Positions 7,491 to 60,661 of a stretch of 64,000 bases of DNA are shown here, one piece after another. The notes under the pieces are model-generated. The model worked only from the letters and a program-made list of their open reading frames with translations. It was not told the origin of the DNA and searched no databases. The stretch lies in the IMG/VR virus record IMGVR_UViG_2886339191_000001, one strand, 5' to 3'. Made by a program: the position numbers and the translations under genes. The stretch comes from an uncultured virus (IMG/VR IMGVR_UViG_2886339191_000001). Its lineage: Duplodnaviria > Heunggongvirae > Uroviricota > Caudoviricetes. The stretch's first letter is position 1, and every line of letters starts with the position of its first letter.

Positions 7491-8861
7491 CTACTTCGCC
7501 GCCTTGGCGCGTGTCAGCTCGGGGCGGAGGATCGCATCTGTCTGCTCATCAGTCAGTTCTTCGGGTTCGGGCTCGGGAGCTGGCTTCGGGCGAGCCTTCG
7601 GCTTGGCGTCGAGGAACTTCGGCCCATCAATTGCCCAGCTCACGAAGTGGTCAACGACCTGTACGGCGTCCTGCCGGCGCGAGGAGGGAGCAGACATGCC
7701 GGGCACGAAGCTCGGCATCCCAACCCGCTCCAGGAGCAGGCTATTCTCGTGGATCGGCACCTCCAGGTGCGGGGCAAGCTTGGCGAAGAAGTCCTCCACC
7801 ATCTGCGCTGAAAAGGCGTGCTCTACTGTCAGGTTGTGATAAGTCGCAGCTAGGATCCGCCAGAAGACTGGCGAGCCGAGCAGCGAGGTCTCGCGGAGCT
7901 GGTCCGGGGTGATCTGCCCGTTCAGGATCGCAGCTAGTGGCGGGAAGGAGCGCACGAGCAGGTCGAAGAACTCCTCAGAGTTCACCTCGACGTCGCGGTC
8001 GCTCATCTGCGACTCGACCCGCTTACCGATCCGGCCCTCATAACCCACACTGAGCGCGCGCACGGTCTCGATAACGTGCTTGGCGGTGGTGACGTAGGGC
8101 GACTTCTTCGGCAGCCGGTCGGTTTCTTTCTCTGTGCGGTTGGTGAGAAGCGGGTGGTTGAGTACGTTCTCGAGGGCGCGGTTGACGGCCTTGCGTGAGT
8201 CGAAGCGCGCACGGACGGAGGCGGTAATACCCTTCGCGTTCTCGGCAATGTCGTAGAACGCCTGGCGGTACTTTGCCGGGTCGCCCTCGACCATCACTTG
8301 CACGGGAATGTGTTCGCTGGTGAATCGCTTGGCCTGCAGTTCAAGCCCGGCCTTCTTCTTCTCGAAGTCGCGGAGTGCGTTGGTGTCCTGGTTTCGGCGT
8401 GCCGAAATGATCGACTCGCTGGTCTTGGCGATGTCCGCGTTGATCCCGTCCAGCGCCTCGTACATGCCAAGAATGCGGTGCTGGCCGTCCAGGATATGTA
8501 AGTCACTGGTGGCAGTGCGCTGGTAGCTGATGCTGCCGAATGCAATGCCAGCGTCCTCGGCGGTCGCGGATACGAACTCGAAGGGGCGCTCTCCGCGGAG
8601 GATGATGCCTGGCACGACCCACTCGGGTGCGCTACGCAAGTAGGCAGCAAAATCGGAGGCGTGCTTGGGTGTGATGCGCCGGTTTCCGACGGTCAGTACT
8701 GCGGGGTTCGGCCGCGGGACGAGCGCAAGGATCTGCAGCAGGGAGAGGTCGAGGAGATAGTTGGTCCGGCCGCCCTGGATGAAGCGGGTCCCGTAATAGA
8801 CATCAGTCGTGCTGTACCCGGTAGCGGCAGGCAGCGCGGATAAGTCAAGAGTCATGATCAT
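7491..8861 (-). CDS. DGQHR-domain (DndB / ParB-superfamily) protein
   Basis: 'NRRITPKHASDFAAYL' and 'LHILDGQHR' motifs; 456 aa. Confidence 0.8.
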   Translation of the reverse strand: MIMTLDLSALPAATGYSTTDVYYGTRFIQGGRTNYLLDLSLLQILALVPRPNPAVLTVGNRRITPKHASDFAAYLRSAPEWVVPGIILRGERPFEFVSATAEDAGIAFGSISYQRTATSDLHILDGQHRILGMYEALDGINADIAKTSESIISARRNQDTNALRDFEKKKAGLELQAKRFTSEHIPVQVMVEGDPAKYRQAFYDIAENAKGITASVRARFDSRKAVNRALENVLNHPLLTNRTEKETDRLPKKSPYVTTAKHVIETVRALSVGYEGRIGKRVESQMSDRDVEVNSEEFFDLLVRSFPPLAAILNGQITPDQLRETSLLGSPVFWRILAATYHNLTVEHAFSAQMVEDFFAKLAPHLEVPIHENSLLLERVGMPSFVPGMSAPSSRRQDAVQVVDHFVSWAIDGPKFLDAKPKARPKPAPEPEPEELTDEQTDAILRPELTRAKAAK

Positions 8862-14537: not shown

Positions 14538-14580
14538 GTGGACTCCTGTGCATTTAGCGGGCTATTTGCGGCTGTTCCCC

Positions 14581-14609
14581 ACTCTGGGGCATGCGGGGCA
14601 GTTGTGCAA
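14581..14609 (-). promoter_or_regulatory. SigA-like promoter of the leftward early operon
   Basis: TTGCAC-17 nt-CAGAGT, with the palindrome at 14555-14564 just downstream. Confidence 0.55.
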
Positions 14610-15043
14610 GAAAGGGGGGGAAGGAATTTTTTTAGGAGGCTATTGCTTCGCGGTGGATGGTGGGGTAAGTGGGGCAATGACGGCAGTGATGAGGGGATTT
14701 TTTTCACACCTGCGCCCGCCCTGTTTCTGCGCCCCCTGGTGCGCTAATCGGAGGTGTTTGCGTCGCGCGCGTGTTTCCTTGTTTTGGTTTTTTTCGAGCG
14801 TGTGTGTGTGTGGGTGTGTGCGCCCCCCCGTGTGTCGCGCGCGCGTCCTTCTTTCCGCTAGCCTTCCCACTAGGTCGATTTGACTTTGGGATAGCGGCCG
14901 GGGTAGTGTCATGTTTGTTGGTTCGGCCGGAGGGTTCGGCAGGGTCGGCGGTTCGGCTTTATCGCCGGAATGGACACGCTCATCTCCCCCCGTGGAGTGT
15001 GCGGAGGACTTGTTTCCCTATTCCTATGGCAACTAGGCTGGAC

Positions 15044-15072
15044 TTGACAGGGCCTAGTGAACGTGCTAGGTT
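15044..15072 (+). promoter_or_regulatory. Strong SigA-like promoter P1
   Basis: TTGACA-17 nt-TAGGTT with extended -10 TG. Confidence 0.8.
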
Positions 15073-15078
15073 AGTGTT

Positions 15079-15300
15079 TGTAAGGCAAGCGGTTCGGAAA
15101 GTTCGGGCCGCGGATTATTTAGTACGTCACGGCACGCCATGACTCGCATCGGGTTGAATTGTCACACAACAGGGCATCGGACGATGAGCACGAGGATATG
15201 GCTGTACGTGAAAGCTACGCCATGCAATACAGGCTGGACACACCCACGATTCCCAGGATGAGGGTGGAGGACTTGTCTCCTTAGCCATATCTAGGTCAAC
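15079..15300 (+). ncRNA. Candidate structured ncRNA, or 5' domain of the larger RNA
   Basis: Downstream of P1 with no convincing ORF; hairpin GCGGTTCGG-AAAG-TTCGGGCCGC; long-range GATATGGCT / AGCCATATC. Confidence 0.4.
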
Positions 15301-15309
15301 TAGGTGGAA

Positions 15310-15338
15310 TTGCAAACGGCTAGCGGATGTGCTAGGTT
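15310..15338 (+). promoter_or_regulatory. Strong SigA-like promoter P2
   Basis: TTGCAA-17 nt-TAGGTT with extended -10 TG; part of an imperfect direct repeat with P1. Confidence 0.8.
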
Positions 15339-15344
15339 AGTAAA

Positions 15345-16155
15345 CGTAACAAGCCAGAACGGAATGTCGGGAGACGTACCTGAAAGGTCACAAAGTAGGC
15401 CCGAATATGGGCAAAGTACGCCAGAACTCCGACATACCTGCAAAGTATGGCGGTCGGCTGGTAAGGATTCTGACTCCCCGGTGTGACTACACCGGCTAAT
15501 GAGCCAAATGTGTAGCGGTAGCTACCAAAGGATCATGCGCAAACTCCGTTGAAATACACGGTATGCGGAATTGGTGAACTGGTGTTCGTCGAGTAAGCGG
15601 GTTGCTCCCGCTACAGCCTCGGCCTAAGCCAACTGACAAACCGCACAGACATGGTGAGGAATCGAAACGAATCGCACTTAGCATGCGACCAACGTTCTAA
15701 CACCCACATAGAAAATTAGCTGGCAATATGCCACAGAACCCGACTTGCAAAGAGCGTTCTGGCCAGCTATCAGGGCAGGGGGCGCGAAAGCGGCCACCCC
15801 ATACCCACATTGCAATAGACCGCCCCCGATCGAATGTCAGGGGGCAAGTCGTCAGGCCACCGTATCTGACACCAGAAGACTGACAACGGACTTCTGTAGG
15901 CATCCACTTTGAATGATGCAGCCTTTGCAGGGCACCCCTACGGCGCTAAATAACTACCAACCGAATGAACGCTCAACGTGCCGCGATTGACTTGTCTCGC
16001 CGCGATTCGGACCGCGAACTGAGAAACGCAATGAGTACCAATTCTTTAGCACGAACAAGGCGCGGCTAACACAGCCGCGGATCGGCCACGGAGCACAGTG
16101 GCAGGCCCACGCCCTCACCTCAGAGTGAGCATCGGTTAGACCGAGCGTGGGCCAC
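15345..16155 (+). ncRNA. Candidate large structured non-coding RNA (~810 nt)
   Basis: No credible plus-strand CDS; more than 12 hairpins and several 7-9 bp long-range complements; GAAA loops; begins right after P2. Confidence 0.55.
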
Positions 16156-16198
16156 GCAGTACAGCCCACCAAACCCACAACACCCCAAGGAGCACCCC

Positions 16199-16378: not shown

Positions 16379-16610
16379 AACCATGCCCACGCCCAACATG
16401 CAGAACCGCCGGCCGAACCCGAAGTCTTCCAAGCCCGCCAAACGCGCCACACAGGCCCGGAATCAAGCCCGGACCCTCAAGTACCAACCCACCACTAAAA
16501 ACCGCTAGGTTAACCACACAGCCCCGGCAGCAGCACACCTCTCACAGACGAGGTGCCGGGGCGCGACCCGCCATTAGCGGGCTATCTGAAATAAGGCCAA
16601 GGAGCCGACT

Positions 16611-42747: not shown

Positions 42748-42788
42748 AAAAAGAAGCCCCCGTCCACTGGACGGGGGCTCTTTTTTTA
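42748..42788. terminator. Bidirectional terminator between the replication and lysis arms
   Basis: AGCCCCCGTCCA / TGGACGGGGGCT flanked by A and T tracts. Confidence 0.9.
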
Positions 42789-46435: not shown

Positions 46436-46545
46436 TACTCGTCCACTCCAAGTTCGCTCGCCAGTGGGTCGCCCATTTTGAGGGGCTCCGCATCAAGGTG
46501 CTCAAGCTGCTGTGCGAGGATCTGGCCTTCTGTGAGGTCTGACAT
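46435..46545 (-). CDS. 36-aa acidic peptide coupled to the endolysin (not in ORF track)
   Basis: GGGAG RBS; MSDLTEGQILAQQLEHLDAEPLKMGDPLASELGVDE*; TAATG overlap. Confidence 0.5.
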   Translation of the reverse strand: MSDLTEGQILAQQLEHLDAEPLKMGDPLASELGVDE

Positions 46546-46600
46546 TTTTCTCCCTGGTCTATACATTCACCATACAACAAACGCCCAGGAATCGTCCAGA

Positions 46601-47266
46601 TTACGCAAAGGCGGTCCAAGTGTAGGTAACACCAGCAGCAAGCGCGCCACCCGACCAATTGGCAATCCAGAGATTGAAGCCATCCTTGGTGCGGGAATTG
46701 GCTGCAAGCGTGGGGCGTGAGTTATCAGCCGTAGCTATGACATTTGAGGGCACTTGAGTAAAGGTGCTCGATACGTAGGTAATTGGTATTGCCAGGGTTT
46801 GACCCGGAGCAATGGAACTGGCAGTAACACCAGAGCCGCTTGCCATTTTGACTGAGGTAATTGCGGCATAGGCGCCTGCAGTGGAGGTAAATACGACCAT
46901 GGAAGAGGTCACCGCATTCCAGCACGTCGCGCCGGCCAGGGTCTTGATCTTCGTGTAAGTGCTGAGCGCGGTGATGAAAGTAGTCACGTTGATTGCTGTG
47001 CAGGTCCCGATGAGGCGCCATTTGCCATCGGGGTGCATGGTGAATTGCGCGCCGGCGCTCAGCCCAGAGTCATCAGCGATGAGCACTGCGAGCGTGCCGG
47101 CCGGCAACGAATCAGCGTTCAGGCTGATCGCGTTCAAGGCGGCCAATGTTGGAACGAACTTCACCGGAAGGGCTTGATTGATCGAACCCGCAAACGTGGC
47201 AAACAAGTCGGTGAGCCGACCGATTGGCCCCGAGGAGGGGTATGTGATGATTCCTACTTTGGCCAT
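46601..47266 (-). CDS. Minor tail protein
   Basis: Thr/Ser/Ala-rich with a lectin-like C-terminal beta domain; end of the tail module. Confidence 0.65.
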   Translation of the reverse strand: MAKVGIITYPSSGPIGRLTDLFATFAGSINQALPVKFVPTLAALNAISLNADSLPAGTLAVLIADDSGLSAGAQFTMHPDGKWRLIGTCTAINVTTFITALSTYTKIKTLAGATCWNAVTSSMVVFTSTAGAYAAITSVKMASGSGVTASSIAPGQTLAIPITYVSSTFTQVPSNVIATADNSRPTLAANSRTKDGFNLWIANWSGGALAAGVTYTWTAFA

Positions 47267-47289
47267 TAGCTGGCTCCTTACGTTGTTAG

Positions 47290-47520
47290 TTAGCTAGGTT
47301 CGGGTGGTGCGGCGCCGGCTACGGCGGAAGCTTCATCCTGTGTGAGCCCTAGATCGACAAGCTTTGCGAGGGCTGATGTCAGCAGAACATCGGGCGTGAT
47401 CATCACGCTGAGAACGCAGGCTTCCCCTGCCCGTGAAGCTGCAAGGTCAGAAGCCTCTTCAATAGACATTGCTTCCAAAGTGAAGCTCTCAACTTCTGTA
47501 GTGACATTCCAAACAAGCAT
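47290..47520 (-). CDS. Small tail-associated protein
   Basis: 'KLVDLGLTQDEA'; AGGAG RBS. Confidence 0.55.
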   Translation of the reverse strand: MLVWNVTTEVESFTLEAMSIEEASDLAASRAGEACVLSVMITPDVLLTSALAKLVDLGLTQDEASAVAGAAPPEPS

Positions 47521-47528
47521 TTGTTCTC

Positions 47529-50441
47529 CTATAAAATTTCAGCATCTAGAGCAAATACACCATTGCCGCCAATATTTGCGGCAAGAAGAGCTGGCCGATA
47601 TGCAGTAGCAGTACCCGCGTGCAGAATGCTTAGATAGCAGCTTTGGAGACCCATTCGAGAGTAGCCCGTACCACCAGTGACGGTTAGATCGTAAGTGCTT
47701 CGGTCAGTAATGATGAGGTTGACCAGTTTTACAATCACAGGCGTAGTACGCATCGTGACTGGATAAGTTACCGAGATGAGACTGGTGCCAGCACTTTGAG
47801 ACAGACCTACTCCCAGAGAAACATAGGCTTGAAGATTTGCTTGCCAGTAATACCGCAGGCAAGCACAAAGCTCTTGGCCAATCTCGGGTAACTCAAATGG
47901 AGTTGCAGTGATGCCAGCTTCAAGTTTTACGTTACCAACAGTCCCACTTGTAAACTCAACACATACGTCTCCACTTCCGTTCAGAGCCACAGTGACAGGG
48001 CTAGATGAGAACACTGGAGCAGTGGCTCCAACGACGTAAACACGACCCTTGCCCGTCCCAGACCATGAGGCAGTATATGTACCTGCTGGCATGTTTGCTC
48101 TTTCAATCTTTTGACAGATTTGGAGATTTGTCGGAAGCGTAACCAATTGCCCCTGAGGAGAAGAGGTGTAAGTGGCCGGAGACCCCCAATAGCTGTAGCT
48201 AGCATGTGTCGCTCCTGCCCAAGAAACCCCTGAGGTTACCGACGGGTCAACGTAGGTCGTTTCGGCAGGAGCTCCGGCTGGAGAAGTGTTCTTTTCTACT
48301 ACTCGAATAGCGTCCCAACGAATTTGCCCAGCCGTGTTTCCAAGGTAGAGGCGAACAAAAGCTTGAGTTGCAGTCAATGGCACAGTCACTTCAACCGACA
48401 CTCGTGTAGGAGTATTTATAGTGTTTGGAACCTGCGGGCTGTGGTACATCTGATACCCTCCCGCAGGTGTGTTTGTATGAACAACGATGGCTCGCTCCCG
48501 AGGGAGCAATACGCCTGTATTTGCGTCAATTTCTCCTGTATGGCTAGTTCCTGTCATCGCACTTTTGACATTGCCTGTTGCGCTAATAACGTAGGTGCGC
48601 CCTGGGGTCATTCCGTGCCGAAATGTCCCCCCATTGTTGCCAACGAAACCAAAGTCAACATAAGAATCAGTCCCAGTTGGGCTATAGAGGTTGACAGACT
48701 TGGTCCCGTATGCGGCCCAAGTGGTATCACCAACATCGAGCGTGCAATTCGTTCCGCCATAATCAAGTCCTGGCGTAGCTCCCTCGTTACTCGGGTTCAT
48801 AACTTGATTGGCATACTTAGAAGTCACTTGCCACCTGTCAAAGCCGAAGCCTTCTGGAAGAATTACCGCATTGCTAGTAGTGCCGCGTTGGTTAGTGCGA
48901 AATGCACCATTGATGATCTTGTTCTGAGCTGGTACGCGCGCGGCCAACGAGCGCGGGGTCACAAGTTTTGTCGTCGAAGTTCCAGCCATGGCATCTGCAT
49001 CGGAGGCGAAACTGCCAACGTCAAGAATGGCTTGACCGTTGTTCTGGTAGGCCTGTCCTGCGACGTCGAGCATGCCGTTTTCACGGTATTTGCCGACACC
49101 CATTCCAATTGCGCCATCCCAGTGCATGAAGATGGTTGACGTTGCGACTGTGCGGGTTATGGAGCTTGTAGAAAATACATCAATGACCTCAATCAGCACC
49201 TCCCAGGATTTGGCTACCCCGTAGGTGCCGATCAGCCGAGAACCCGCAAAGGTGATGCCGCCAGGGGTGACTGTGGCGATGTTGGTGTAGACGCTTGCCC
49301 CACGAGCCCTTGTCGAGATTCGGTAAGTGAGCGAGTTTTTTTGGGTGCCATTTACAAGCGACTGAACAGCAGTATTCAGCGTGATCTTGATGTACGTGCC
49401 ATCGTCTCGGATGGTTCCATCCACGTAAGCACGCTGCAGTGTCAAGGTTGTGGCATCGATCGTTGGCGCGATGTAGGGCAGCACGGCGATAGAGCTTGTA
49501 GTGGAAGCAGACTGGCCCCGAGAGTCCGTGACGGAAGCGGCCATGGATAACGTGCCGGAGCCGCTCAGCGCGGCCGTAGTGCCCGATATCGAATTGATTG
49601 TTTGTCCATCGACGGTGATCTTGTACGAAACAATCGTCGAGCCGTAAATTCCTGCAGATCCGACAATGCCGAGATTCAATTTGGAGAGCTGCTGCACATA
49701 AGCCCCAACAACAGAGTTGACGGCAGCAACGTTTTCTGATCGGCTGATCGAGCTGATGCTAGGCACAACACTGGATGGGACGTTGAGGGTAAACCCAACT
49801 GCAGTTGTTCCGATTAAGGAGCCCCCCGAGTACGTGTTGGTTGTCAGCGCACCAGCGCCACTCATTGCATTGGGAATCTCGTTTAGCAATCCCAGGGGGG
49901 GCGTCCACGATGTCGAACTGCCAACGCCACTGGCGATAGTGCCGGATTGCGAACCGAACGAATAGGTCACCGTATGAGTGAAAGAGGACGACGCAGGATT
50001 TGTGTAAATCGTCACGGGCGAGTTGGCAACCATTGGGCTGGGCGAAAAGGTCGAATTAGACGCGCGCGCGATTGTTGGAAGACCTTCTGAGCTGCTGCAG
50101 CTTGCGCTCCCGATTGTGCCGGGACTACTCGAGCTTGCCGAAAAGCTGTAGCTGCGTGTGCCGTCTGAGTTGTGACCGATATTGAATTGACCAGAGCCGA
50201 GCGACTTGGACTGGCCAGCGGACAGATCGTAGGAGTAGGAGCCGGAAGCGGTTTGCCCTTCGATATTGACGGACCAAGAAGAGTCGACATCGTAACGATA
50301 AGAGCGTGATCCGCTGTTGTAAAGCGTCAGCGACCAGTTGACTGTCGAGTAGTTGCCCGCGATGTTCTGGCTCGCTAAGGAGGTGCTGAGTTGGAGCTGA
50401 AAATTTGAGCGTCCCGAAAAATTGCCTGCTGCGTAACCCAT
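47529..50441 (-). CDS. Tail fibre / receptor-binding minor tail protein
   Basis: 970 aa; N-terminal DUF859-like region ('SQNIAGNYSTV', 'LPTIARAS'); 'NKIINGAF' and 'KLEAGITATPFE...CLRYY' fibre motifs. Confidence 0.8.
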   Translation of the reverse strand: MGYAAGNFSGRSNFQLQLSTSLASQNIAGNYSTVNWSLTLYNSGSRSYRYDVDSSWSVNIEGQTASGSYSYDLSAGQSKSLGSGQFNIGHNSDGTRSYSFSASSSSPGTIGSASCSSSEGLPTIARASNSTFSPSPMVANSPVTIYTNPASSSFTHTVTYSFGSQSGTIASGVGSSTSWTPPLGLLNEIPNAMSGAGALTTNTYSGGSLIGTTAVGFTLNVPSSVVPSISSISRSENVAAVNSVVGAYVQQLSKLNLGIVGSAGIYGSTIVSYKITVDGQTINSISGTTAALSGSGTLSMAASVTDSRGQSASTTSSIAVLPYIAPTIDATTLTLQRAYVDGTIRDDGTYIKITLNTAVQSLVNGTQKNSLTYRISTRARGASVYTNIATVTPGGITFAGSRLIGTYGVAKSWEVLIEVIDVFSTSSITRTVATSTIFMHWDGAIGMGVGKYRENGMLDVAGQAYQNNGQAILDVGSFASDADAMAGTSTTKLVTPRSLAARVPAQNKIINGAFRTNQRGTTSNAVILPEGFGFDRWQVTSKYANQVMNPSNEGATPGLDYGGTNCTLDVGDTTWAAYGTKSVNLYSPTGTDSYVDFGFVGNNGGTFRHGMTPGRTYVISATGNVKSAMTGTSHTGEIDANTGVLLPRERAIVVHTNTPAGGYQMYHSPQVPNTINTPTRVSVEVTVPLTATQAFVRLYLGNTAGQIRWDAIRVVEKNTSPAGAPAETTYVDPSVTSGVSWAGATHASYSYWGSPATYTSSPQGQLVTLPTNLQICQKIERANMPAGTYTASWSGTGKGRVYVVGATAPVFSSSPVTVALNGSGDVCVEFTSGTVGNVKLEAGITATPFELPEIGQELCACLRYYWQANLQAYVSLGVGLSQSAGTSLISVTYPVTMRTTPVIVKLVNLIITDRSTYDLTVTGGTGYSRMGLQSCYLSILHAGTATAYRPALLAANIGGNGVFALDAEIL

Positions 50442-50443
50442 GT

Positions 50444-52006
50444 TTATAGGCTCCTAACGACTGTGCCACTGCCAAGTTTTTCGAGTTTGTGGTTTCCCAA
50501 AACGACCTCAGTGCCAACAAAAGAGTTCACGAATAGCTGACCGGAGTTCCAGTAGGAGACCACAGCCCCGCTTTCGATCATCTCAATACGATCGGGCTTA
50601 AGTGCGAGTTGGAATGGTGAGCCTGGGTTGCTGATAATTGCGCCAGTCGGGCCGAAGGAGTAAAAGGTCTGCATGGCCGCGAGATTGCTTGATGTGCTGC
50701 TTAGCCCGTTAGCCACCTCGGCGACTTGGCCGGCAAGAATTGTCACCGTGCCGTTGGCAGAAAGGTTTAGGTCCCGGCCCACTGTGGGAGACAATTCGTT
50801 TACGGTCAGGGATCCAGCCACTATGGAGGTCGCGCCAATTGTTCCTGCGGTTATGAGGCCACCGTTCAGCGTGCCTACGGTTGCGCTGCCGAGGTCAATT
50901 GAAGAGATTGTCTCGTGGGATATGGTCTGCACAAGCCATGCGCCACCAATCCACTGCCACTGGGCAATAATGTTGTTCGCAGTATTGTGCCTGAACCAAA
51001 GATCACCCTCGACGACTCCATTGACCGTCGGAGTAGTGTCGGCCCAAGTGAGGTTATTGCCCGTGGTACTGACCACCGTGAGCAGTGCTGGAGTCAAGTC
51101 TCCTGCACTGACGCCGACGATAGTGGTAGTCGAGCTTGGGGACGGCAAAGTGGCCGCGCCGAGGCTGTCAATGGCAATAAGGCGGACGTCGTAGGAGGCA
51201 CCAACAATCAACCCAGCGATCTGGATGCTGCCACCACCTCGAACTAGCGCCGAGCCCATGCGGATCCAGGCTGCAGCGCCACTAACCGAGACCTCCGCGT
51301 AAGTGTAACGAAACTGAGAAGAGGGCAATGCTGACCCAAACAGGCCATTCCAGGCGGCCACCAGCATGCCAGCGCCAGAGCTGAGAGATGGTGAGTTCGG
51401 TGTAGCCATAACTGTGAGGGTCGCTGGGGTGGTTGCAAGAACGTAGTCGCTGAGCACGCTGGAAACGCCCCACGCAGATATTGCAACCACGCGGATTTGA
51501 TACTGAACACCAACTTGCAGAGCATCAACCTGAACATTTGTGCTTGGGCTGGTCCCAAGCATCAAGTAGCCCGGGCCGTAACCGATCGTTGTGGTGTCGC
51601 CGTTAGCGATGCTGCCATCGGCATAGAAGACACGGCCCCAGACTTGGTAAATCGTAGGGATGAGTGGGTTTCCGTCGACGTCCAGGTCGCTCGGGACGAT
51701 AGACACATTCAGTCGCCCGTATGGTGCTCCGCTTGTATCGAAGTAAGTCGAGGGGGCGACCGTCAAAGCGGTCGCGGCAAGAGTCGCGGGAATCCGCTGC
51801 ATTTCGTATTGAGCGGCGATCTGGGCCTGCACGGAGTTGGCTGAGGCAGTGATGGCATTGCCGGCCATCACGATGGCTGTCTCGCTGTTGTTGGCGAGAA
51901 TCTGTCGGCGAGTTTCGTCGTCGCGCAAGAACTTATCGATGCGCCGAGCCCATGGCTGTGCCGCTACGGGAAGCCCATTATCAGTAAGCACATCGCTCAT
52001 GCTCAC
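50444..52006 (-). CDS. Minor tail protein with fibronectin type III-like repeats
   Basis: 'YQIRVVAI' and 'YDVRLIAID' motifs; start may be 52000. Confidence 0.75.
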   Translation of the reverse strand: MSMSDVLTDNGLPVAAQPWARRIDKFLRDDETRRQILANNSETAIVMAGNAITASANSVQAQIAAQYEMQRIPATLAATALTVAPSTYFDTSGAPYGRLNVSIVPSDLDVDGNPLIPTIYQVWGRVFYADGSIANGDTTTIGYGPGYLMLGTSPSTNVQVDALQVGVQYQIRVVAISAWGVSSVLSDYVLATTPATLTVMATPNSPSLSSGAGMLVAAWNGLFGSALPSSQFRYTYAEVSVSGAAAWIRMGSALVRGGGSIQIAGLIVGASYDVRLIAIDSLGAATLPSPSSTTTIVGVSAGDLTPALLTVVSTTGNNLTWADTTPTVNGVVEGDLWFRHNTANNIIAQWQWIGGAWLVQTISHETISSIDLGSATVGTLNGGLITAGTIGATSIVAGSLTVNELSPTVGRDLNLSANGTVTILAGQVAEVANGLSSTSSNLAAMQTFYSFGPTGAIISNPGSPFQLALKPDRIEMIESGAVVSYWNSGQLFVNSFVGTEVVLGNHKLEKLGSGTVVRSL

Positions 52007-52030
52007 TATTCTTGCAGCTTATTGTCAGAA

Positions 52031-54118
52031 TCAGGTCTGACGCAATGGCGCACCAGCAAATTGCAAGTCAGTTCGAGTGGCCCACACCGCATCGAAGTCA
52101 TCAAATGTGCGCAACGCCCACACCGCATCGAAGTCGTCCATGGTCGTGTCAGCAACTGCGGTGAAGCTCGTACCGCTTTCACCGGTTGGGGCGGTGATGA
52201 CTCGGTAGACCGAGTCGCCCGAGCGAAAACGGGACCCAGCGATATCGCCAGGCATCAGGCCAGGATTGTCTGTAGTCCCGCTGATATTGACAACGGGGCG
52301 AGAGAACATCGGCACGGTCTCACTGGCAACTCGATCGGCCATGTCGCGGGTCTGGACATAAGCGGTGTCGATGGTCACCCCGACCTCCCCCGAGGCCTCT
52401 GTGGAGCTGAGCCCTGTGAGATAGGTGAATTTCTCTTTGCGGTTGATGATGCCCGTGCCGCGCACGCGCAGCGTGGAGTAGTAGGTGCTGTCGCCGGAGC
52501 CCATGGAAATTGCAAAGGGTGCCAGTGTGGGCTCATTTGTTCCAGAGGTGATGGTGATGATGATGGTGTCGAAGTTGTCACCCACCTTGACCGTCACTGA
52601 TCCGCCAAGCTGAGTCCAGACCGCCGGATCCAGGGTTTGGATCGATCCTGCTCCACCGTCCACGCTGCCTTGTCCCATGACCGTGTAGACGGAGCCGGCC
52701 GCGCCGTCGGAGGGGGCAACCTCCTTGACACACACTGGCTGCTCTACCGAGACCAGGGAGCCAAGGACGGGGACCTCGATCGTCGTGACCGAGCCGGAGT
52801 CGACTGAGAGGATCGCAGCGTCCATGGTCCAGCCGGCATCCGAGGAAGTGCCTGTCGCGTCGTCGTAGCTGGCGGGTGGGTAAACAAGCGCATTTACAAG
52901 GTAGCGAGAGTTGTAGTTGAAGACCTCCACGGACTGTGCAAGCTGCGAGGCGTCTGCAGAAGTTCCAATCTGTGTTACGTCGCTGCCATTGAATGAGCGA
53001 GTTCGTGGGAGTCGAATGTAAACGGCATCTCCCAGGTCGCTCAACTCAACTCCTTGGGCTGCGCAGAACTCCTTCACGCGGGTCAAAACGTTGTCCTTGA
53101 ACCCGGGTACGGCAACGGGCCGCTCGGCAATGCCAATATCAACGTTCAACGGGCGAGTGACTCCGACGCTCGCAAGGAGAGTGGCAATGTAGCCGTCTAG
53201 TGACCCAACGAACGGGGCGACACGACGGACAACGTTCAGTCGCGCTATGACCGACATGCTGGTGATTGAAACGGTGTTGCCGTCACTGGTCGGGGAAGAG
53301 ATTCCGCCTTGGATAATCGCCCGCCCCGAGTCGAGTACGGTCAGCTCTCCGCCGCCGAGCAACATGGAGTCATCGAACTCGCGGATGCCAAGCTGCACCG
53401 TGGTCGCGCCACCCGTGGTGTCTGCTGGTGAGAGTGGGCTGGCATTTTCAGAAATCGTGTACGTGGTCAAATTCTCTACCGCGTAGTACGGGCCGGGCGC
53501 GTTGCTGAGATTGCGTGTGGTGCGGATCGAGCGCGAGCCGTTCGTTGCCCCCTCCCAGTAGTAGAAGTCTGTCGATCCCAGCGCGACTTTGCTGTCACCG
53601 ACAAATGGCATCTGCCCATTGGGCATGATCGAGCCAAGCTTCACATCGATCAGTGTGCCCGCTGTGCCATTTCCAAGTCGCAGGACTAGCGTCCAGTTGG
53701 TGGCAGCATCGATTGTGATGGTGGCAAGGGTCGCGGTCCAGGCGGTAGTCGTAGAGAAAATGGCTCCGGTGATGTTGTCTGCCGTCACCTGACTCTGGCC
53801 ACGCCGAAGCCCCAGAGTGCAGCTTGTCTCGATCGCGCTCGTGCGGATCCAGATGCGCACATCAAATGTGCCAGCCGGGATCGCCAGGGAAGAATCGTTG
53901 ATTGTAACGACCGCGGCTCCCGCACTCGCGCGCGTAAAGCGCAAGAACTGCTCTGTCTCGTCGGTGCGGAGTATCGGCGCCCCCAGGGTTGCGCTCGTAG
54001 AGCTCCAGAGCCGACGCTGGAGGGTCGCATGAGGAGTAGCAAGATAGTTGAGAGACAGCGGCAGGCCGATCGCATAGCGCGGCAGTGGAGGCTGCTGAAT
54101 GCCGATATTTACAGCCAC
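52031..54118 (-). CDS. Minor tail protein (tail tip/hub)
   Basis: 695 aa; synteny downstream of the tape measure gene. Confidence 0.7.
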   Translation of the reverse strand: MAVNIGIQQPPLPRYAIGLPLSLNYLATPHATLQRRLWSSTSATLGAPILRTDETEQFLRFTRASAGAAVVTINDSSLAIPAGTFDVRIWIRTSAIETSCTLGLRRGQSQVTADNITGAIFSTTTAWTATLATITIDAATNWTLVLRLGNGTAGTLIDVKLGSIMPNGQMPFVGDSKVALGSTDFYYWEGATNGSRSIRTTRNLSNAPGPYYAVENLTTYTISENASPLSPADTTGGATTVQLGIREFDDSMLLGGGELTVLDSGRAIIQGGISSPTSDGNTVSITSMSVIARLNVVRRVAPFVGSLDGYIATLLASVGVTRPLNVDIGIAERPVAVPGFKDNVLTRVKEFCAAQGVELSDLGDAVYIRLPRTRSFNGSDVTQIGTSADASQLAQSVEVFNYNSRYLVNALVYPPASYDDATGTSSDAGWTMDAAILSVDSGSVTTIEVPVLGSLVSVEQPVCVKEVAPSDGAAGSVYTVMGQGSVDGGAGSIQTLDPAVWTQLGGSVTVKVGDNFDTIIITITSGTNEPTLAPFAISMGSGDSTYYSTLRVRGTGIINRKEKFTYLTGLSSTEASGEVGVTIDTAYVQTRDMADRVASETVPMFSRPVVNISGTTDNPGLMPGDIAGSRFRSGDSVYRVITAPTGESGTSFTAVADTTMDDFDAVWALRTFDDFDAVWATRTDLQFAGAPLRQT

Positions 54119-54975
54119 GAGCCGACCTCCACAAGCTTTGCCGCAGCCGATACTTCAGCACGGACGTTGACCGTTGATAGTGCGGTAACGGTGGGTTCAT
54201 CGGCGAAGGCGCAACCAGAGTTACCGCGGCCCGAGATGTACCCACCTCCATCGGGCATGTCATTGCTGGGAAGGACCTGGAGGATCAGAGCGGTCAGAAG
54301 AATGCTGTCGCCAACCGCACCAGCGAGCTGTATGTCAACACCGCTGACCCCAACGAATGTGTCTACCACTCGTTGGCCGGCGAGCCCGAGCGGTGTTAGT
54401 TTGCGCGCTGCGCCACCGACAGGTGTTACTTGCACGCCTGCTGTGCCGGTGGCGGAACCGTGAAAGCCAGCCCATAGCTTGAATCCTGGCGGGATCGGCA
54501 CGTAGATCGAGCGAGGGGTGGTTGCTGCCGTGAAGGTGTAGACAGCGGAAAAAGTCGGATAACCCTGAGTGTTCGTCGGGGTTGCGACGGCGGACGGCCG
54601 AGCATCAACAAACATAGAGGGAGCATCCGAAGCCGCCAGGGCCGCATGCCCGAGGTTCACCGGAGCAAGGTTGAGTTCCATCTCCATCGGGTCGAGGAAG
54701 TAGATGAGGTTAGAAGCCACCATGAATTTGGCCAAGGGGTCGTTGTCGTAAACGTGCCCTGCGTAATCGAGAATCGGGCGCATCTCGAGGCGGCCAGCGA
54801 CAGGCCAGCTCATCTCGTACTCGGCATGCGTAGTGCGGGATCCAAGGATCGCCGCCCCTCCGTTGACGAAGTTGAGCTGAGTGGTGAACTTCTTGCGCGA
54901 GAAATTTGCTGAGGTAGCGGGGGCCTTCACCCATTGCTCGTGCCCACGGGTGCCAAACCACATTTGCTGTGCCAT
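54109..54975 (-). CDS. Minor (distal) tail protein
   Basis: Directly after the tape measure gene; 288 aa. Confidence 0.7.
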   Translation of the reverse strand: MAQQMWFGTRGHEQWVKAPATSANFSRKKFTTQLNFVNGGAAILGSRTTHAEYEMSWPVAGRLEMRPILDYAGHVYDNDPLAKFMVASNLIYFLDPMEMELNLAPVNLGHAALAASDAPSMFVDARPSAVATPTNTQGYPTFSAVYTFTAATTPRSIYVPIPPGFKLWAGFHGSATGTAGVQVTPVGGAARKLTPLGLAGQRVVDTFVGVSGVDIQLAGAVGDSILLTALILQVLPSNDMPDGGGYISGRGNSGCAFADEPTVTALSTVNVRAEVSAAAKLVEVGSWL

Positions 54976-57900
54976 CTATTTCACTCCTGCTCTGACAAGT
55001 CGTGCATTCGCGGCGTTCGCGGCCTGCGCGATGACACCATCGCTCACCGTGAGCGACCCAGCAAATTCCTGGAAGAGATTGCGGAAGAACATCCGGTCGG
55101 AGGCGGACATCTCCGATACTGCGGAGGAGCCACGGCCCGAGGCAGCAGGCATATTGCCGCCGACTGGTCCTCCATTGGCGTAACCACCGAGCGATCGTTG
55201 GTGCATGCGAGCCAAGTTTTCGACCCCGTAGTACCGAACAGATTCTTGTGGGAAGACGTACTCACCAGCATGGACGATTCCGCGGGCGTCGTACTTTCCA
55301 CCGCCACCGGTATAGCCGCCCTGATCGAAGAACTTCATGCGAGTTCCAGAATTGAGGGTAGCGCCACCAGAGTTTTGGATGGCTGCACTGATCGGGTTGT
55401 TCTGGAAGTAGTTAACAAAACCTGGCCGCATGCCTGCAGCCAGCAAAGCGCCGGTTCCATACAGCTCGTTACGGTCCCAAGTTGCCTCGATCTTTACCGA
55501 TCCCTTTGAGAGGTTGATAGCGTCGAGGGCTGCCTGCAACGCCAGCTTGGCATCGTAATTACGGCCATCGATCGTCACGGTCCCGCGGCCCTGGTCAATA
55601 GCGGCAAGGGCCGCGCTGAGGACTTTTTTGGCGGGGATATTAGTGCCATTGATGGTGACTGTCGCCGTTGACTTGTTGACGGAGCCAAGGAGCTGCATCA
55701 GTTCATCACCAGCTCCAACTGTGTTGCCGTCGATGTTGACTGTGCCAACTGATTTGTTGATGCTGGCGACGATTTGATCGCGCGCAAGTTCAGCTTTTAC
55801 GATCTTGCCGTTGATCGAGACGTAACTTTCACCGCGCTCAATTGCCTTGAGCACGTCGCCAAGAGCCTGACTTGCTCCCTTCGTCTGGCCGCCGATCTTT
55901 ACTTTCGGAGCCTTCTCGTCGATGCCCGTATAGAGCTTTTTTAGTGCATCGTTGACGAGTATCGTGTCGCCGTTGAATACAATCGTTTTTTCTAGGTTGA
56001 GCCCGGCGTCGGCGATGAGCTTCGCCATCAATGCCTCAAAGTCGAATCCTGAACCGACGCCGCCGCCGCCTCCTCCTCCGCCCCCGCCACTTGCGTTTGC
56101 GGCTTTTAGCTTGGCCTCGAACTCGGCTATTGCTGCATCTACGCCCGTGATATCCAAGCCGACGGTGATGTTACGTGGGATGCGGTTGATTGCCAGCGTC
56201 ATGTCATCGAAGGAGCTGGCGTAATCGAGGATCGCGGAACGGGAGAAGCCGGCCTGGGTGGCCTGTGCAATGAACTGGGCCTTGAGTTCGGCAACCTTCT
56301 TCTTGAGCTGGTCGGCCGGCATACCCGTGGAGGCATAGGTGCCAATCAGGTCTTGGTATTTAGAGACCAGATCAGTGATGACTCCACGGTTTTCGATTGC
56401 CGCAGCAGAGTTACCAGTAAGGCTCGTCGACGAAGCCTCCTGTGCATCAGACATCTCTTTTACCGCTTTGGTCTGATCCCCATTGGCCGAACTGAGGTCA
56501 GCTTGGGCAGCGGCCGTATCGGAAGCGTTCTTGGCCAAGTCAGCCTGAATCTTCTTGACCCGCTCAGCATCTCCGTACATTGTGGCGACACGCAAGTAGT
56601 ATTCGCTGTTGCTCTTATCTGCCGCGAGCTGAGAGAGAGTGGCGTTGGCGTCGCGGCCCTTTTGGTTGGCGTTTTCGATTGCCTCGGCGGCGCTGTCAAT
56701 TTTCTCTTTCGCATCAGCGGAGTTGCTGGCGATATCGAGCCAGCTTTTGGAAAGGCCGTCCAGGGAAGTTTGAGGGGCAAACCGCATCTCGTTCATGCGC
56801 CTGAAAACCCCAGACAAGTCATTGCCGTAGTCCGCGAGAGTGCGGATTTGCTTAGCGGCCCCGCTGGCAGATTTGCCCACTCCGCCGACACCCTTGGAGG
56901 CACCGGCGGCCCCAGACTTCATGGCAGCCAGCATCGCGTTGACATCAGCGCCAGTTTTGTTGGTAGCAATAGCTACCCCAGTAAGCTGGCCCATGGTGGC
57001 CAGAAGTGGTGTGAGCTGCGCGACGGAGGCGAAACCCCCAGCGATGAGTGCGGAGAAGAGGGCAGAGATTTGTCCGGCAGCGGCTGGGCCGGATCCAGCA
57101 GACTCGACGATATTTGTCAGGACAGAGCTGAGGGCAGATCCACCAAGAGCAGCAGTGGCGCCGCTGCTGACGAATGCGCCACCGAGAGTGCTGAGGTCTC
57201 CGACGAGCGACTGCGCAGCGATGCTTTGCTGGAAGAATCCATCGATAGTTTTCTTGGACTCGTCAACGAAAAGCACTGCGGCAGCTCCGGCACCGGTAGC
57301 GGCATCGGCCTGCGCTCTTAACGCGGCCGTGGTTTGTTCTGCGGAAACCCCAACTGCATTGTTTGCAGCCGCTTGTGCTGCTGTTGCTTTTGCTGAATCT
57401 GTGACGGTGGTTTTTATAGCACTTGCACCTTTGGCCATGTCAAAAAATGCTGGTGCCGCAGACTTTAGCCTTGTAAGGTCTTCGTCTGATATGGCTCCAA
57501 TTTTTATCCCAGATGACGAGAGTGCGCGGTCATTACTCAGCCCAGCTTTGAGACCAGCCAAAAGCATGACGAGCTTTTCACGGCTAATTTTTAGCTGATT
57601 TGCCATGGAGTCCGTGAGCTGTGTCACGTAGTCAGCTCCACCCTTGACGGGATCCCCGATGGATGCTTTCAGCAGCGCGGCCGGGTCGCCACCAAAGCTT
57701 TGGATAGCTCGGTTGCCGGCATTGTCATCAAACAGTTTCTGCACTGTTTTGTTGTTCGCAAGCTCGTTGGCAAGAGCCGCTTTGGTGTTCTCGCCGTAGG
57801 CAATTGTCTGGTTTCTGATCTTTTCCGTGGCGTTAGTGGTCCCGCTATTCAGCTTGACCTGTGCCCCAGTGGCGCTCTCAATGCCGCCCACCCAATCTTT

Positions 57901-60615
57901 TGCTGCAACGGTTGTGTCTTTGACGGTGGTGGTGATGGTGGTGATTGCTTTGCCGGTTTTTGCATACTCAGCCTGGTCTTTTGCCATGGCCGTGCTGATC
58001 GAGCTTGAGTCACCGAAAAACTCTTTGGCCGCAGCACCTGCTGTCTTCTGTGATTCGCTGAATTGGACGAGCGCCGCTGCGGCAGTGCCGATAAGGACAA
58101 TCAGCGCACCAATGCCCGTGCTGATGAGTGCAGCTTTCAAGCCAATAGAACTGACTGTTGCGAGCCGCTGGGCACCCGCAAGCCCATTTGTGGCGACTAT
58201 GGCAGTACCGGTTGCCGCCGCATTAGCGCCCGTGGCAACCGTGCTTGCAGCGGTAGCGGCAGTAGCGGCTGCGGTTGCTGCAGTTTTTGCTGCCGTAGCT
58301 GCGGTTGCCTCTAGCATGAAAGTTCGCAGAGCGAGAAGTGATCCAGTAAACCGCGCTGTACCGGCTGCTGCGAGTGCAATCACACCAGTAAGGGCAACGA
58401 TTGCAAGAGCTGCAAAAATGAAAGGTTGGTTGCTTTTTTCTCCCGCGAAATCGCTGATTAGTCGGAAAAAATCAGTCAGAGATAGCACCAGGTCATTGAG
58501 CGGTCCCTTTGCCGCCCCGCCGATGGAGGCGAACATGGCGGTTATCGTGTTGCTGAGGATTGTTAGCTTGGCGGCGAGAGTGTCGTTCGTGATGCCGTAC
58601 TGGGCGCTTAGCTCGTCGGCATTCTTGAATCCATCGGCAGCGTTCCCGAGCGACTGCTGGAGGATGTCGGTGTTCTGAGCGAGCTTGAGTAGCGCGGGGA
58701 TATCGCGGGTGCTAGTGAGGCCGAGGGCTTGCAGAGTGGCGATTGCGCTGTCGCCAGAGGCGTTGACGCCTGTGAGTAAGTCCACAAGGCTCGAGCCGGC
58801 GTCGGCCTTGAATGCTGCGCGGAACTGGTCACCCGTTTGCCCAGAGAGCGCGCCAAACTTTGCAAGGGCGGCCGTGTCTCCGTTGATTGCTTCTTGGATT
58901 GAGATAAATAGCCGGGTAACCGTCGAGCGCGCAGCCTCTGGGGCAATTCCGATGGAGGCAAGCGCACCAGAAAGTCCGATGACTTCATCGGTAGTGAGTC
59001 CGACCGTGCCAGAGATACCGGCGATGTTCTGGGAAATGGCGATGATCTGCGACTCAGTGGCGACCGAGTTGACACCGACCTTGAGGATGGAGGAGGCGAG
59101 TGCTTCGTAGTTGCTGTTGACGTCGGGCAAAAGTTGGTTGAGACGGCCGAGCGCGGTGCCTGAAGCCTCAATGGTTACATTTGTCGTTGCCGAGAACTGA
59201 GCGGTGACTTTGGTGAAATGCGTAAGGTCATTAGCGGCGATGTTGAGCTGGCCACCGAGAGTACCGATCGCAGATAGGTCACTAAACGAGACTGGGATTG
59301 ACTGGGACAGATCAATAAAGTCAGCCTTGAGCGACTGTGCGGCCTGCCCAGTCGCGCCGACTGTGCGCTGCACCTGGGCGAAGTCTTTCTCGAAACTGAT
59401 GGCAGCGCCGGCCGCAGCAGCGAAGGCGCCCACCAGAGCCGTACCAGTTATAGCCGCCGCGAAGGAGACATCGTAGAGTGCGTAGCGCACTCGTGGCAAT
59501 CGACTTTCGTCAATACCTAGAAATGCCTTTTTTGGGCCACCACCTGGCTGATCCTCAGCAGCCTGGAGGGCCTTGGACGCAGCTCGGCTTTTCTCTTTGG
59601 CAGCAACGACGCGGTTGGTCGCCTCGAGCTGCGCCTGCAGGTTTCCGGGAGAGCTACGCTGAACGGCCTGCAGCTCCTTCTCTGCGACAGTGAGCTGGGT
59701 GGTAGCAAGCTGCGCGCGTTTCTTGGAGGCAGCGACGACCCCGTTATCCCTGACATCCTTATCGAAGGCGTTGTCCAAATTGATCTTTGCGACTTTGCCC
59801 CTGGCGGCATCGAGCTGCTCCTGCAGCTTGGCCTTCGCTGCAGTAAGCCGGGTGGTTTCAGCAGCGGCCTTGGCCTCTTCAGCGGTGAGACGCTGCGTGG
59901 CGGCGCGCTCTTCCTCCATAGCTGCAGCGACATTCCGAGAGGCATTTGCCAGCGTAGGCAAAGAGGCGTCTTTCTTTTCCAGGCGAGAAAGTGCAATCTG
60001 TGCGGAAGCCAGGTTGGTAGATGACGTGGCAGCGCGGAGCTGTGCAGCCCCAAGCGCCCCGAGCTTGGCAATCTGCTCGTCTTCACCGTTTGCGCTCTGA
60101 ACAGTGGCAATGCGTTTCTCAGCGGTGGCGATTTCGCTTGCTGCCGTCGTGAGGACGTTGGCATAGCTTGCAGTACGAGCAGCAATCGTGGCGAGCTTAT
60201 CGAGCTGGTCACTGCCCCTCTCCTTGTTGGGATCGAGCTTCTTGCCCGGCTCGTCACCGGTCAGTGCGTTTTTGCGGAAATTCGAGTAGGCGCGGGACGC
60301 ATCATTGACTTCCTGGACGCGCTTGGTCCATGCAGCGGAGCCGCGGATTGTCGCCGACTCTTCTGTATTGAGAGAGCGAGTCAGCTCGCCAACCTGAGTT
60401 GTGAGAATTGTGACTGCAGTCTTGTTTCCAAGAAGGTCTTTCTCAAGCTTCTCTAGTGCCCTTCCGGTTGCCTGAGTTTTGCCTTCAAGGCCGGCCATGC
60501 TTGTGATCGTGCCGTCAAGACTTTTCTCGAGTCCCTTGAGCTGATCGAGGGCCTGAGCGAGCCCAGTGATGATGAAGTTCAGACGTGCTTCAAGGCTGAA
60601 ATCTTCGGCGGCCAC
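54976..60615 (-). CDS. Tape measure protein
   Basis: 1879 aa, Ala-rich and helical; TP901-type core ('FEKDFAQVQRT...IGTLGGQL'); C-terminal 'GGYTG...GIVHAGEYV'. Confidence 0.93.
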   Translation of the reverse strand: MAAEDFSLEARLNFIITGLAQALDQLKGLEKSLDGTITSMAGLEGKTQATGRALEKLEKDLLGNKTAVTILTTQVGELTRSLNTEESATIRGSAAWTKRVQEVNDASRAYSNFRKNALTGDEPGKKLDPNKERGSDQLDKLATIAARTASYANVLTTAASEIATAEKRIATVQSANGEDEQIAKLGALGAAQLRAATSSTNLASAQIALSRLEKKDASLPTLANASRNVAAAMEEERAATQRLTAEEAKAAAETTRLTAAKAKLQEQLDAARGKVAKINLDNAFDKDVRDNGVVAASKKRAQLATTQLTVAEKELQAVQRSSPGNLQAQLEATNRVVAAKEKSRAASKALQAAEDQPGGGPKKAFLGIDESRLPRVRYALYDVSFAAAITGTALVGAFAAAAGAAISFEKDFAQVQRTVGATGQAAQSLKADFIDLSQSIPVSFSDLSAIGTLGGQLNIAANDLTHFTKVTAQFSATTNVTIEASGTALGRLNQLLPDVNSNYEALASSILKVGVNSVATESQIIAISQNIAGISGTVGLTTDEVIGLSGALASIGIAPEAARSTVTRLFISIQEAINGDTAALAKFGALSGQTGDQFRAAFKADAGSSLVDLLTGVNASGDSAIATLQALGLTSTRDIPALLKLAQNTDILQQSLGNAADGFKNADELSAQYGITNDTLAAKLTILSNTITAMFASIGGAAKGPLNDLVLSLTDFFRLISDFAGEKSNQPFIFAALAIVALTGVIALAAAGTARFTGSLLALRTFMLEATAATAAKTAATAAATAATAASTVATGANAAATGTAIVATNGLAGAQRLATVSSIGLKAALISTGIGALIVLIGTAAAALVQFSESQKTAGAAAKEFFGDSSSISTAMAKDQAEYAKTGKAITTITTTVKDTTVAAKDWVGGIESATGAQVKLNSGTTNATEKIRNQTIAYGENTKAALANELANNKTVQKLFDDNAGNRAIQSFGGDPAALLKASIGDPVKGGADYVTQLTDSMANQLKISREKLVMLLAGLKAGLSNDRALSSSGIKIGAISDEDLTRLKSAAPAFFDMAKGASAIKTTVTDSAKATAAQAAANNAVGVSAEQTTAALRAQADAATGAGAAAVLFVDESKKTIDGFFQQSIAAQSLVGDLSTLGGAFVSSGATAALGGSALSSVLTNIVESAGSGPAAAGQISALFSALIAGGFASVAQLTPLLATMGQLTGVAIATNKTGADVNAMLAAMKSGAAGASKGVGGVGKSASGAAKQIRTLADYGNDLSGVFRRMNEMRFAPQTSLDGLSKSWLDIASNSADAKEKIDSAAEAIENANQKGRDANATLSQLAADKSNSEYYLRVATMYGDAERVKKIQADLAKNASDTAAAQADLSSANGDQTKAVKEMSDAQEASSTSLTGNSAAAIENRGVITDLVSKYQDLIGTYASTGMPADQLKKKVAELKAQFIAQATQAGFSRSAILDYASSFDDMTLAINRIPRNITVGLDITGVDAAIAEFEAKLKAANASGGGGGGGGGGVGSGFDFEALMAKLIADAGLNLEKTIVFNGDTILVNDALKKLYTGIDEKAPKVKIGGQTKGASQALGDVLKAIERGESYVSINGKIVKAELARDQIVASINKSVGTVNIDGNTVGAGDELMQLLGSVNKSTATVTINGTNIPAKKVLSAALAAIDQGRGTVTIDGRNYDAKLALQAALDAINLSKGSVKIEATWDRNELYGTGALLAAGMRPGFVNYFQNNPISAAIQNSGGATLNSGTRMKFFDQGGYTGGGGKYDARGIVHAGEYVFPQESVRYYGVENLARMHQRSLGGYANGGPVGGNMPAASGRGSSAVSEMSASDRMFFRNLFQEFAGSLTVSDGVIAQAANAANARLVRAGVK

Positions 60616-60661
60616 CGGTCACTCCCTCTCTAACGATTCACTGAAATACTACAGTCAACCT

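Follow-up and report, generated by a model that had tools for sequence, protein, structure and literature searches.

A non-coding stretch of about 810 nt at the head of the early genes of an actinobacterial prophage has, in our analysis, very probably been selected for its RNA fold. The preliminary description had proposed a large structured non-coding RNA behind an early promoter, and this was upheld by comparison, since the fold is kept in a second prophage, that of genome G140. The DNA analysed (the window, 64 kb) represents almost the whole of one prophage of ~66.7 kb. From translations read by eye, the prophage is flanked on both sides by host genes, with an integrase-like ORF at 65255-66397 in window numbering, past the window end. 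The minus strand encodes the head, packaging and lysis functions, whereas the early and replication genes occupy the plus strand between 16199 and ~42.7 kb; the structured region sits at the point where the two arms diverge (Table 1). The early arm of 27 kb is co-directional and ends at a U-tailed terminator at 42755-42779. At the protein level, the GenBank relatives of the prophage belong to distant phages, chiefly of Microbacterium, Arthrobacter, Gordonia and Streptomyces, and ARAGORN found no tRNA genes in the 64-kb window.

Table 1. Features of the promoter region, the structured RNA and the first early genes, in window coordinates.
Feature	Position	Strand	Remarks
P1, promoter-like TTGACA-17-TAGGTT	15044-15072	+	near copy of P2; from repeat comparison
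P2, promoter-like TTGCAA-17-TAGGTT	15310-15338	+	CTAG-rich surroundings
Structured RNA, ~810 nt	15345-16153	+	5′ end inferred from P2, 3′ end from last helix
5′ conserved block: hairpin with GAAA loop, linker rich in A, GCCC hairpin	15378-15412	+	20/22 letters as in G140
Hairpin with loop 15438-44 complementary to loop 15924-30	15433-15449	+	two double changes in stem
Variable region	15455-15710	+	aligned reliably to G140 only at the GUUCG word (15584-88) and at hairpin 15597-15611
Central domain: two stacked helices including an internal loop, a possible pseudoknot (UGCC/GGCA), followed by a GNRA-capped stem with AC bulge	15717-15800	+	blind model failed here
UGUCA-loop hairpin, GCAUC hairpin, UUGCAG-loop hairpin (kissing partner)	15822-15933	+	
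Three-way junction with conserved words UGAACG and ACGUGCCGC	15961-16010	+	within 151-nt metagenome piece
3′ domain: hairpin flanked by CAAGG and GAUCG, second hairpin with GGAKCACA in its loop, and a three-way junction at the end	16061-16153	+	
Linker, C/A-rich, single-stranded, with Shine-Dalgarno site 16187-92	16155-16198	+	no U-tailed terminator
First early gene, 59 aa	16199-16378	+	RBS-led; no family above cut-off
Second early gene, 41 aa, basic peptide	16383-16508	+	no Pfam family

Third-position GC bias revealed no gene-like ORF over 14538-16135, which bears out the non-coding gap reported earlier ahead of the first RBS-led gene, and no small ORF common to the window and G140 stretches was seen when the ORF lists were compared by eye. 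All 12 of the complementary segments checked from the preliminary description were in place, and the further local hairpins that it had named appeared in the stem list and in the folds. Its claim that such segments are unusually dense was likewise borne out: there were 16 local perfect stems of at least 6 bp against 7.9 ± 2.4 in shuffled sequences (maximum 13) and 8 long-range stems of at least 8 bp against 3.0 ± 1.8 (maximum 7), both exceeding all 60 shuffles. Long-range stems of 6-7 bp were not enriched relative to shuffles. The folding z-score, a check suggested there, was -3.4 with 20 shuffles or -2.5 with 9 shuffles; since 2 of the 14 other 811-nt windows of the prophage also reached -2.5, the region is not singled out by folding energy alone, and the G140 counterpart gave only -1.0. 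GNRA and T-loop-like loops were not significantly enriched (p 0.09-0.68), and T-loop richness was accordingly dropped as a hallmark of the RNA. The modest folding z is consistent with a reading in which the stretch, instead of forming a single RNA, is a series of small hairpins that act independently as signals for processing, pausing or stability, or else is a control region by the promoters that works at the DNA level. We consider this improbable in view of the comparison with G140.

The G140 prophage was found with a profile of 16 close portal proteins, as the one close prophage among 400 family genomes, and both prophages come from near-complete host genomes (99.98% and 100%). Its terminase is 78% identical, its DndB-like protein 73% and its early genes 50%. 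At the same divergence point G140 has a gene-free gap of 1,372 nt. On its early strand, a TTGACA promoter-like site precedes ~770 bases rich in hairpins; next comes a linker rich in C and A, and then an RBS with the first gene. This ~770-nt counterpart is syntenic with the window RNA and 46% identical to it in a global alignment. The best local alignment between the two scored 60, against 34 ± 4.5 (maximum 50) in 200 shuffles, and a chain of collinear words scored 43.9, where 200 shuffles reached at most 39.1 and 224 real windows at most 35.2. Judged from these sequence comparisons, the two stretches are homologous despite their 46% identity.

Conservation of the fold was then assessed with covariance models and by hand. 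A model built blind from window 16040-16160 alone (R2) ranked the G140 segment first in 90 kb, with 20.3 bits and E 7e-4 under a rough calibration, the next match reaching 11.5 bits; nhmmer with the same piece returned nothing at E<=20. In the R2 alignment, which is fitted to the structure, 12 of the 36 pairs were double-changed and 3 were broken, compared to 0-3 double changes in slid registers. A second blind model (R1, 15712-15850) recovered just a 16-nt piece in G140 (E 3.3), probably because G140 has insertions there. In a table compiled by hand, 18 nested helices from 15378 to 16152 kept their order, with offsets within 82 nt of G140, and 82 of their 83 pairs were kept (53 unchanged, 27 changed on both sides and 2 turned into G-U by a single change), the remaining 1 being broken. 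All four single changes in the full 22-row table were to or from G-U on the plus strand, which fits an RNA on that strand, and a loop swap from GAAA to GAGA was seen between the window and G140. One helix has identical flanks on both sides (5/5 and 5/5) and keeps 7/7 pairs with 4 double changes. Two helices of the hand table (15734 and 15900) were placed by pairing alone, it covers 14 entries compared to the 37 stems of the window's own centroid fold, and its nominal probability of 4e-10 is inflated because the helices were picked with both sequences in view.

The homologs behind this comparison were one full-length sequence (G140) and two short fragments, the latter being 151-nt contigs from a glacier-metagenome run (X2), located only within the RNA; the parts that they leave uncovered carry no weight either way. 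The first of these corresponds to 15954-16104 with 6 differences, 5 of them at one hairpin tip. The second corresponds to 15689-15733 and then replaces all 6 pairs of helix 15734-39/15756-61 with the length unchanged (ungapped on 15734-15763, by hand). In X2 the top 2 of the 7 pairs of hairpin 16061-79 are broken, though a GNRA-capped tip is available as an alternative. When the two stretches were aligned by sequence only, at 46% identity, consensus folding gave no plus-strand signal (z -0.9 to 0.6). When helices were positioned by identity, blind to pairing, 6 of 34 could be placed; of the 17 changed pairs 4 could still pair, a number also reached in 4 of 100 shuffles, and the reverse direction gave no signal. 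Region 15455-15710 had no reliable alignment to G140. Since alignment-only tests have little power at 46% identity, more weight was placed on three other results: the blind model of the 3′ end, the helix swap in X2 and a matched indel in two distant loops.

These loops, 15438-44 and 15924-30, form the best-supported long-range contact, which the pairing map of the preliminary description had missed. Lying ~480 nt apart, they are complementary at 7/7 positions in the window and 6/6 in G140; each loop is one base shorter in G140, a matched one-base indel, and double changes are found in both stems. Overall, the RNA shows two three-way junctions and three candidate long-range contacts, two sequences being too few to fix the full fold. 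From the pairing map proposed earlier, we retain the terminal junction together with the hairpins that start at 15822 and 16061, while three pairs have no counterpart in G140. The proposed 9-bp pair 15353-61/15755-63 is displaced by the local helices 15717-24/15762-69 and 15734-39/15756-61, both kept in G140 and the second also in the metagenome fragment; it is one of three options arising from three CAGAAC copies, and the relatives keep the local option. For the suggested pairs 15568-75/16037-44 and 15364-73/15427-35, G140 offers only 3-4 bp each, and pair 15511-18/15608-15 competes with a local hairpin kept in G140. The pairing of 15583-89 with 16051-57 retains a 5-bp core in G140. In both phages, the GUUCG word at 15584-88 has two possible partners, 16052-56 (5 bp) and 15966-73 (8 bp, with one double change), which could constitute a switch, or one of which could be a contact between molecules. 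Two apparent kisses, 15741-48/15844-51 and UGUCAG/CUGACA, were rejected because their register is not kept in G140.

The preservation of helix order and spacing over 780 nt (offsets within 82 nt), the complementarity of loops 480 nt apart through a matched indel, and the G-U-type changes and GAAA to GAGA swap, which fit RNA on one strand, all argue against a mere string of independent signals. In favour of such signals, besides the modest z, are the lack of alignment of 15455-15710 to G140 and the occurrence of a terminal-type stem alone before an early gene in another locus, L179 (E 0.04), and at window 16521-16562.

In agreement with the earlier statement that no catalogued family applied, Rfam was empty at gathering scores across the window; only two chance matches were returned around the RNA region at E<=10, and the G140 counterpart gave no real match. 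The reported lack of intron hallmarks was also confirmed, as no Rfam intron model matched at E<=10 in the window RNA or the G140 copy, and the test for group I and group II introns found no catalytic-core match in Rfam and no interrupted gene. A ribozyme or intron-derived catalytic RNA, cutting or joining its own transcript, appears very unlikely: the size, multi-way junctions and pseudoknots do resemble those of catalytic RNAs, as described in the accessible part of PMC5737381, and an RNA ligase gene lies near the RNA in both prophages, but the Rfam models of introns, RNase P and small ribozymes match neither homolog at E<=10, no gene is interrupted, and there is no gene-like ORF inside.

Among large phage RNAs, ROOL (RF03087) averages 581 nt and is often found near tRNA genes, and both ROOL and GOLLD are described, in the portions of these sources available, as forming RNA-only cages through kissing loops (PMC5737381; bioRxiv 10.1101/2024.12.08.627333). 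Like ROOL, the window RNA is large and phage- or prophage-borne, combines low sequence conservation with kept helices and a variable region, and has candidate pseudoknots and kissing loops that would join its 5′ and 3′ parts. Unlike ROOL, it heads an early operon without a tRNA in the window, and between these two cage formation has been shown for ROOL only. It resembles GOLLD (RF02032) in its ~800-nt size, its prophage location and the better conservation of its 3′ part than of its 5′ part, and differs from it in having no tRNA neighbours. The ROOL model gave no match at E<=10 in the window region or the G140 copy, and its whole-genome scan was empty, but the controls of that scan gave no signal either, so it carries little weight. 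For the GOLLD model (416 positions), the region in the window, the whole genome and the copy in G140 all lacked a match at E<=10. By these Rfam covariance models, the RNA is neither GOLLD nor ROOL.

The nearest working analogue is the Pleft RNA of phage L5, which occupies the same genomic position and has no sequence likeness to the window RNA. In the Cluster A mycobacteriophages L5, D29 and StarStuff, a ~500-nt non-coding RNA is encoded between Pleft and the first gene; it is the most abundant phage transcript, is stable, ends before the first gene in ~90% of cases, is toxic to the host, and is in part apparently needed for lytic growth, as given in the accessible text of PMC5712189. In both cases a temperate actinophage has a long non-coding stretch running from the early lytic promoter, here a putative one, to the first gene, with no obvious terminator. 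In contrast to Pleft RNA, for which abundance, processing and toxicity have been shown, the window RNA is known from sequence alone, and it is longer (~810 vs ~500 nt); within that same text no fold is proposed for the L5 RNA. Alignment of the two scored 33 against 28 ± 3.5, and a model built with both homologs, R3, found no match in L5. A further likeness is to conAn2, HK022 put and EAR, where an RNA element also opens a very long operon and a small protein gene comes next (PMC8191782, in part); here, unlike there, few intrinsic terminators lie downstream, the hosts and elements are other ones, and conAn2 was compared by description only. Likened to the large ornate phage RNAs in its working and to L5 Pleft in its position, and failing each model and similarity test, the RNA is in our assessment a new family.

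As far as searched, the RNA looks confined to one clade, since, apart from weak matches, it was not detected in distant loci, virus records or L5. BLASTn with the RNA region gave no match in 50,697 phage records or 72,556 plasmids, and a core piece gave 2 chance matches at E 6. At the family level, 10 of 400 genomes had just 23-49-nt BLASTn matches, G140 not being among them, and none of 31 genus genomes matched. Exact-pattern scans of viral contigs returned 0, 5, 112 and 2 loci, all chance on follow-up, and those of metagenome contigs 0 and at least 118 loci, again all chance (38 of 118 with short flanks only). With nhmmer, no RNA copy was detected in 26 loci found via the 478-aa early gene or in 12 found via the portal profile. 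With R3, the 48 loci from more distant phages yielded only 2 weak matches. Of 5 whole virus records, 4 (portals 34-39% identical) had nothing at E<=1 and the fifth reached E 0.125. R3 also matched 2 of 150 family genomes, both in the model by construction. L179 was not counted as a homolog, as it matched in the terminal module only (E 0.04) and has an ORF upstream. The portal profile matched in 3/401, 1/2, 2/32, 3/371 and 5/401 genomes of overlapping samples, these being the one close prophage in G140 and otherwise distant ones, and metagenomes held ~15 protein clusters with 62-69% portal identity at the protein level. More distant prophages were found that have the early arm and no detectable copy of the RNA. 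Literature searches of open-access main texts, motif supplements such as that of PMC5737381 aside, returned no description of such an RNA in Microbacteriaceae phages.

GC-rich stems like the terminal stem of the RNA were observed alone between early genes, at window 16521-16562 and at L179 11094-11144, and are possibly a recurring processing or stability module.

Upstream of the RNA, the promoter P2 named in the preliminary description is present in the sequence together with its near copy P1, and a sigma-70 consensus scan called neither (0 found). CTAG occurs 9 times in 495 nt around the window promoters (14850-15345; overall 0.9/kb) and 7 times in 285 nt around those of G140 (L174 6540-6255; overall 0.7/kb), so that its density near the promoters is ~20-35 times that of the rest in both prophages. 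The CTAG-rich surroundings are likely operator sites, and we infer that P1 and P2 would be repressor-controlled lytic promoters. The P1-P2 spacer (15073-15310, ~240 nt) holds a hairpin with GAAA (15089-15111) and repeats of the P2 upstream sequence, and a hairpin-bearing spacer likewise lies between two promoter-like sites in G140. Two contigs of another family genome, G200 (L004 and L012), are similar to the region of promoter P2 across ~35-50 nt and do not include the RNA. Downstream, C or A makes up 37 of the 44 nt of the linker in the window and 34 of 44 in G140, and the terminator scan found no U-tailed terminator directly 3′ of the RNA, which means that the RNA may be the leader of the early operon.

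Our tentative preference is for a stable free RNA that acts in host takeover. The ~810-nt stretch would fold as a single RNA into a compact three-dimensional particle, its 5′ and 3′ halves tied by loop-loop and pseudoknot contacts. It lies where the first product of the putative repressor-controlled lytic promoter is expected, and would accordingly be made first on induction or infection. By analogy with L5 Pleft, most transcripts would end, by cleavage or release, within the C/A-rich linker that follows the last helix, and the stable free RNA would accumulate, with a minority of transcripts continuing into the early genes. The free RNA might then work in trans as a scaffold or decoy for host RNA-binding machinery during takeover, possibly self-assembling via complementary loops as in ROOL and GOLLD. 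We favour this reading because of the L5 Pleft precedent and the ROOL and GOLLD cages formed via kissing loops; the scarcity of intrinsic terminators downstream, which leaves little for a cis antiterminator to act on, was counted on the same side. At the 3′ end of the RNA we found no terminator and no sign of a cleavage site.

Close behind comes the possibility that the RNA is a cis-acting leader, which would stay on the early transcript and alter the elongating polymerase or shield the message of the 27-kb arm, perhaps with the small basic peptide. Such a leader might allow read-through of Rho-type or structure-dependent stops, or block 5′ decay. The position of the RNA between promoter and first RBS in both prophages, without a terminator behind it, is consistent with this, as are the one-directional course of the arm up to its U-tailed terminator and the C-richness of its first 6 kb (C/G 1.35-1.82). 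Rho-loading RNA is C-rich. The scan for terminators, which requires a U-tail, speaks against a leader, with 1 terminator-like site on the plus strand over 16.1-36 kb and 10 on both strands compared to 15.3 ± 4.1 in shuffles; 36-42.7 kb was covered by the hairpin list only. Terminators of GC-rich hosts may be without a U-tail. That a basic peptide is the second gene in both prophages also supports a leader, and a precedent is provided by conAn, a large RNA element that heads a long operon together with a small protein (PMC8191782, in part). Nonetheless, related basic peptides are present in two prophages in which the large RNA was not detected (L176 and L178), and the early arms of more distant prophages run without a detectable copy of it.

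The 41-aa peptide is a candidate RNA-binding partner; an Atlas search with it gave nothing at 0.9 or above. Its counterpart in G140 has 24 aa and occupies the same place (L174 5295-5221, minus strand). Small Arg/Lys-rich early peptides of 24-46 aa with a motif of the type R..AR.[LVI]K were seen at these two sites, window 16383-16508 and L174 5295-5221 (-), and at L176 9130 (+) and L178 9191 (-). They are reminiscent of arginine-rich RNA-binding peptides such as lambda N.

Rather unlikely, in our estimate, is a more elaborate form of the free RNA, a phage RNA machine of a new class unrelated to GOLLD and ROOL: as the first lytic product it would form, via co-varying loop-loop contacts and possibly with the basic peptide, a defined multimer that, in the first minutes after induction, captures a host machine such as RNA polymerase, Rho, the ribosome or a defence nuclease. 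If true, such a multimeric machine would supply a structural mechanism for the long early non-coding RNAs of actinophages, for example the toxic Pleft RNA of L5. Few bacterial RNAs are of such size and folding complexity, GOLLD and ROOL being the known phage-borne ones. The RNA described here has a defined place in the phage programme and a specific long-range contact that paired changes can disrupt and then re-establish; given this position and contact, and the near-complete host genomes, the strains, if in culture, look amenable to induction, deletion and structural studies. The findings also suggest that long folded RNAs recur at the head of actinophage early operons, the abundant Pleft RNA of L5 being the tested precedent.

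Elsewhere in the prophage, a GT/GC alternating tract occurs at the divergence point, at window 14770-14850 and at L174 6700-6520 in G140, and is possibly a genome end or packaging region. A DndB-family protein (PF14072, 108.7 bits) is encoded at 7491-8861 (-), directly upstream of the terminase genes, and is 40-44% identical in distant relatives, compared to 73% in G140. The tail and lysis region, 46500-61000 (-), has a lower GC content (52-60%) and weak codon bias relative to the remainder of the prophage. In the more distant prophages, an AT-rich non-coding stretch that appears origin-like follows the basic-peptide gene (L177 10940-11200, L178 9000-8700 (-) and L176 9400-9700), and those of L177 and L178 have a word in common by eye.
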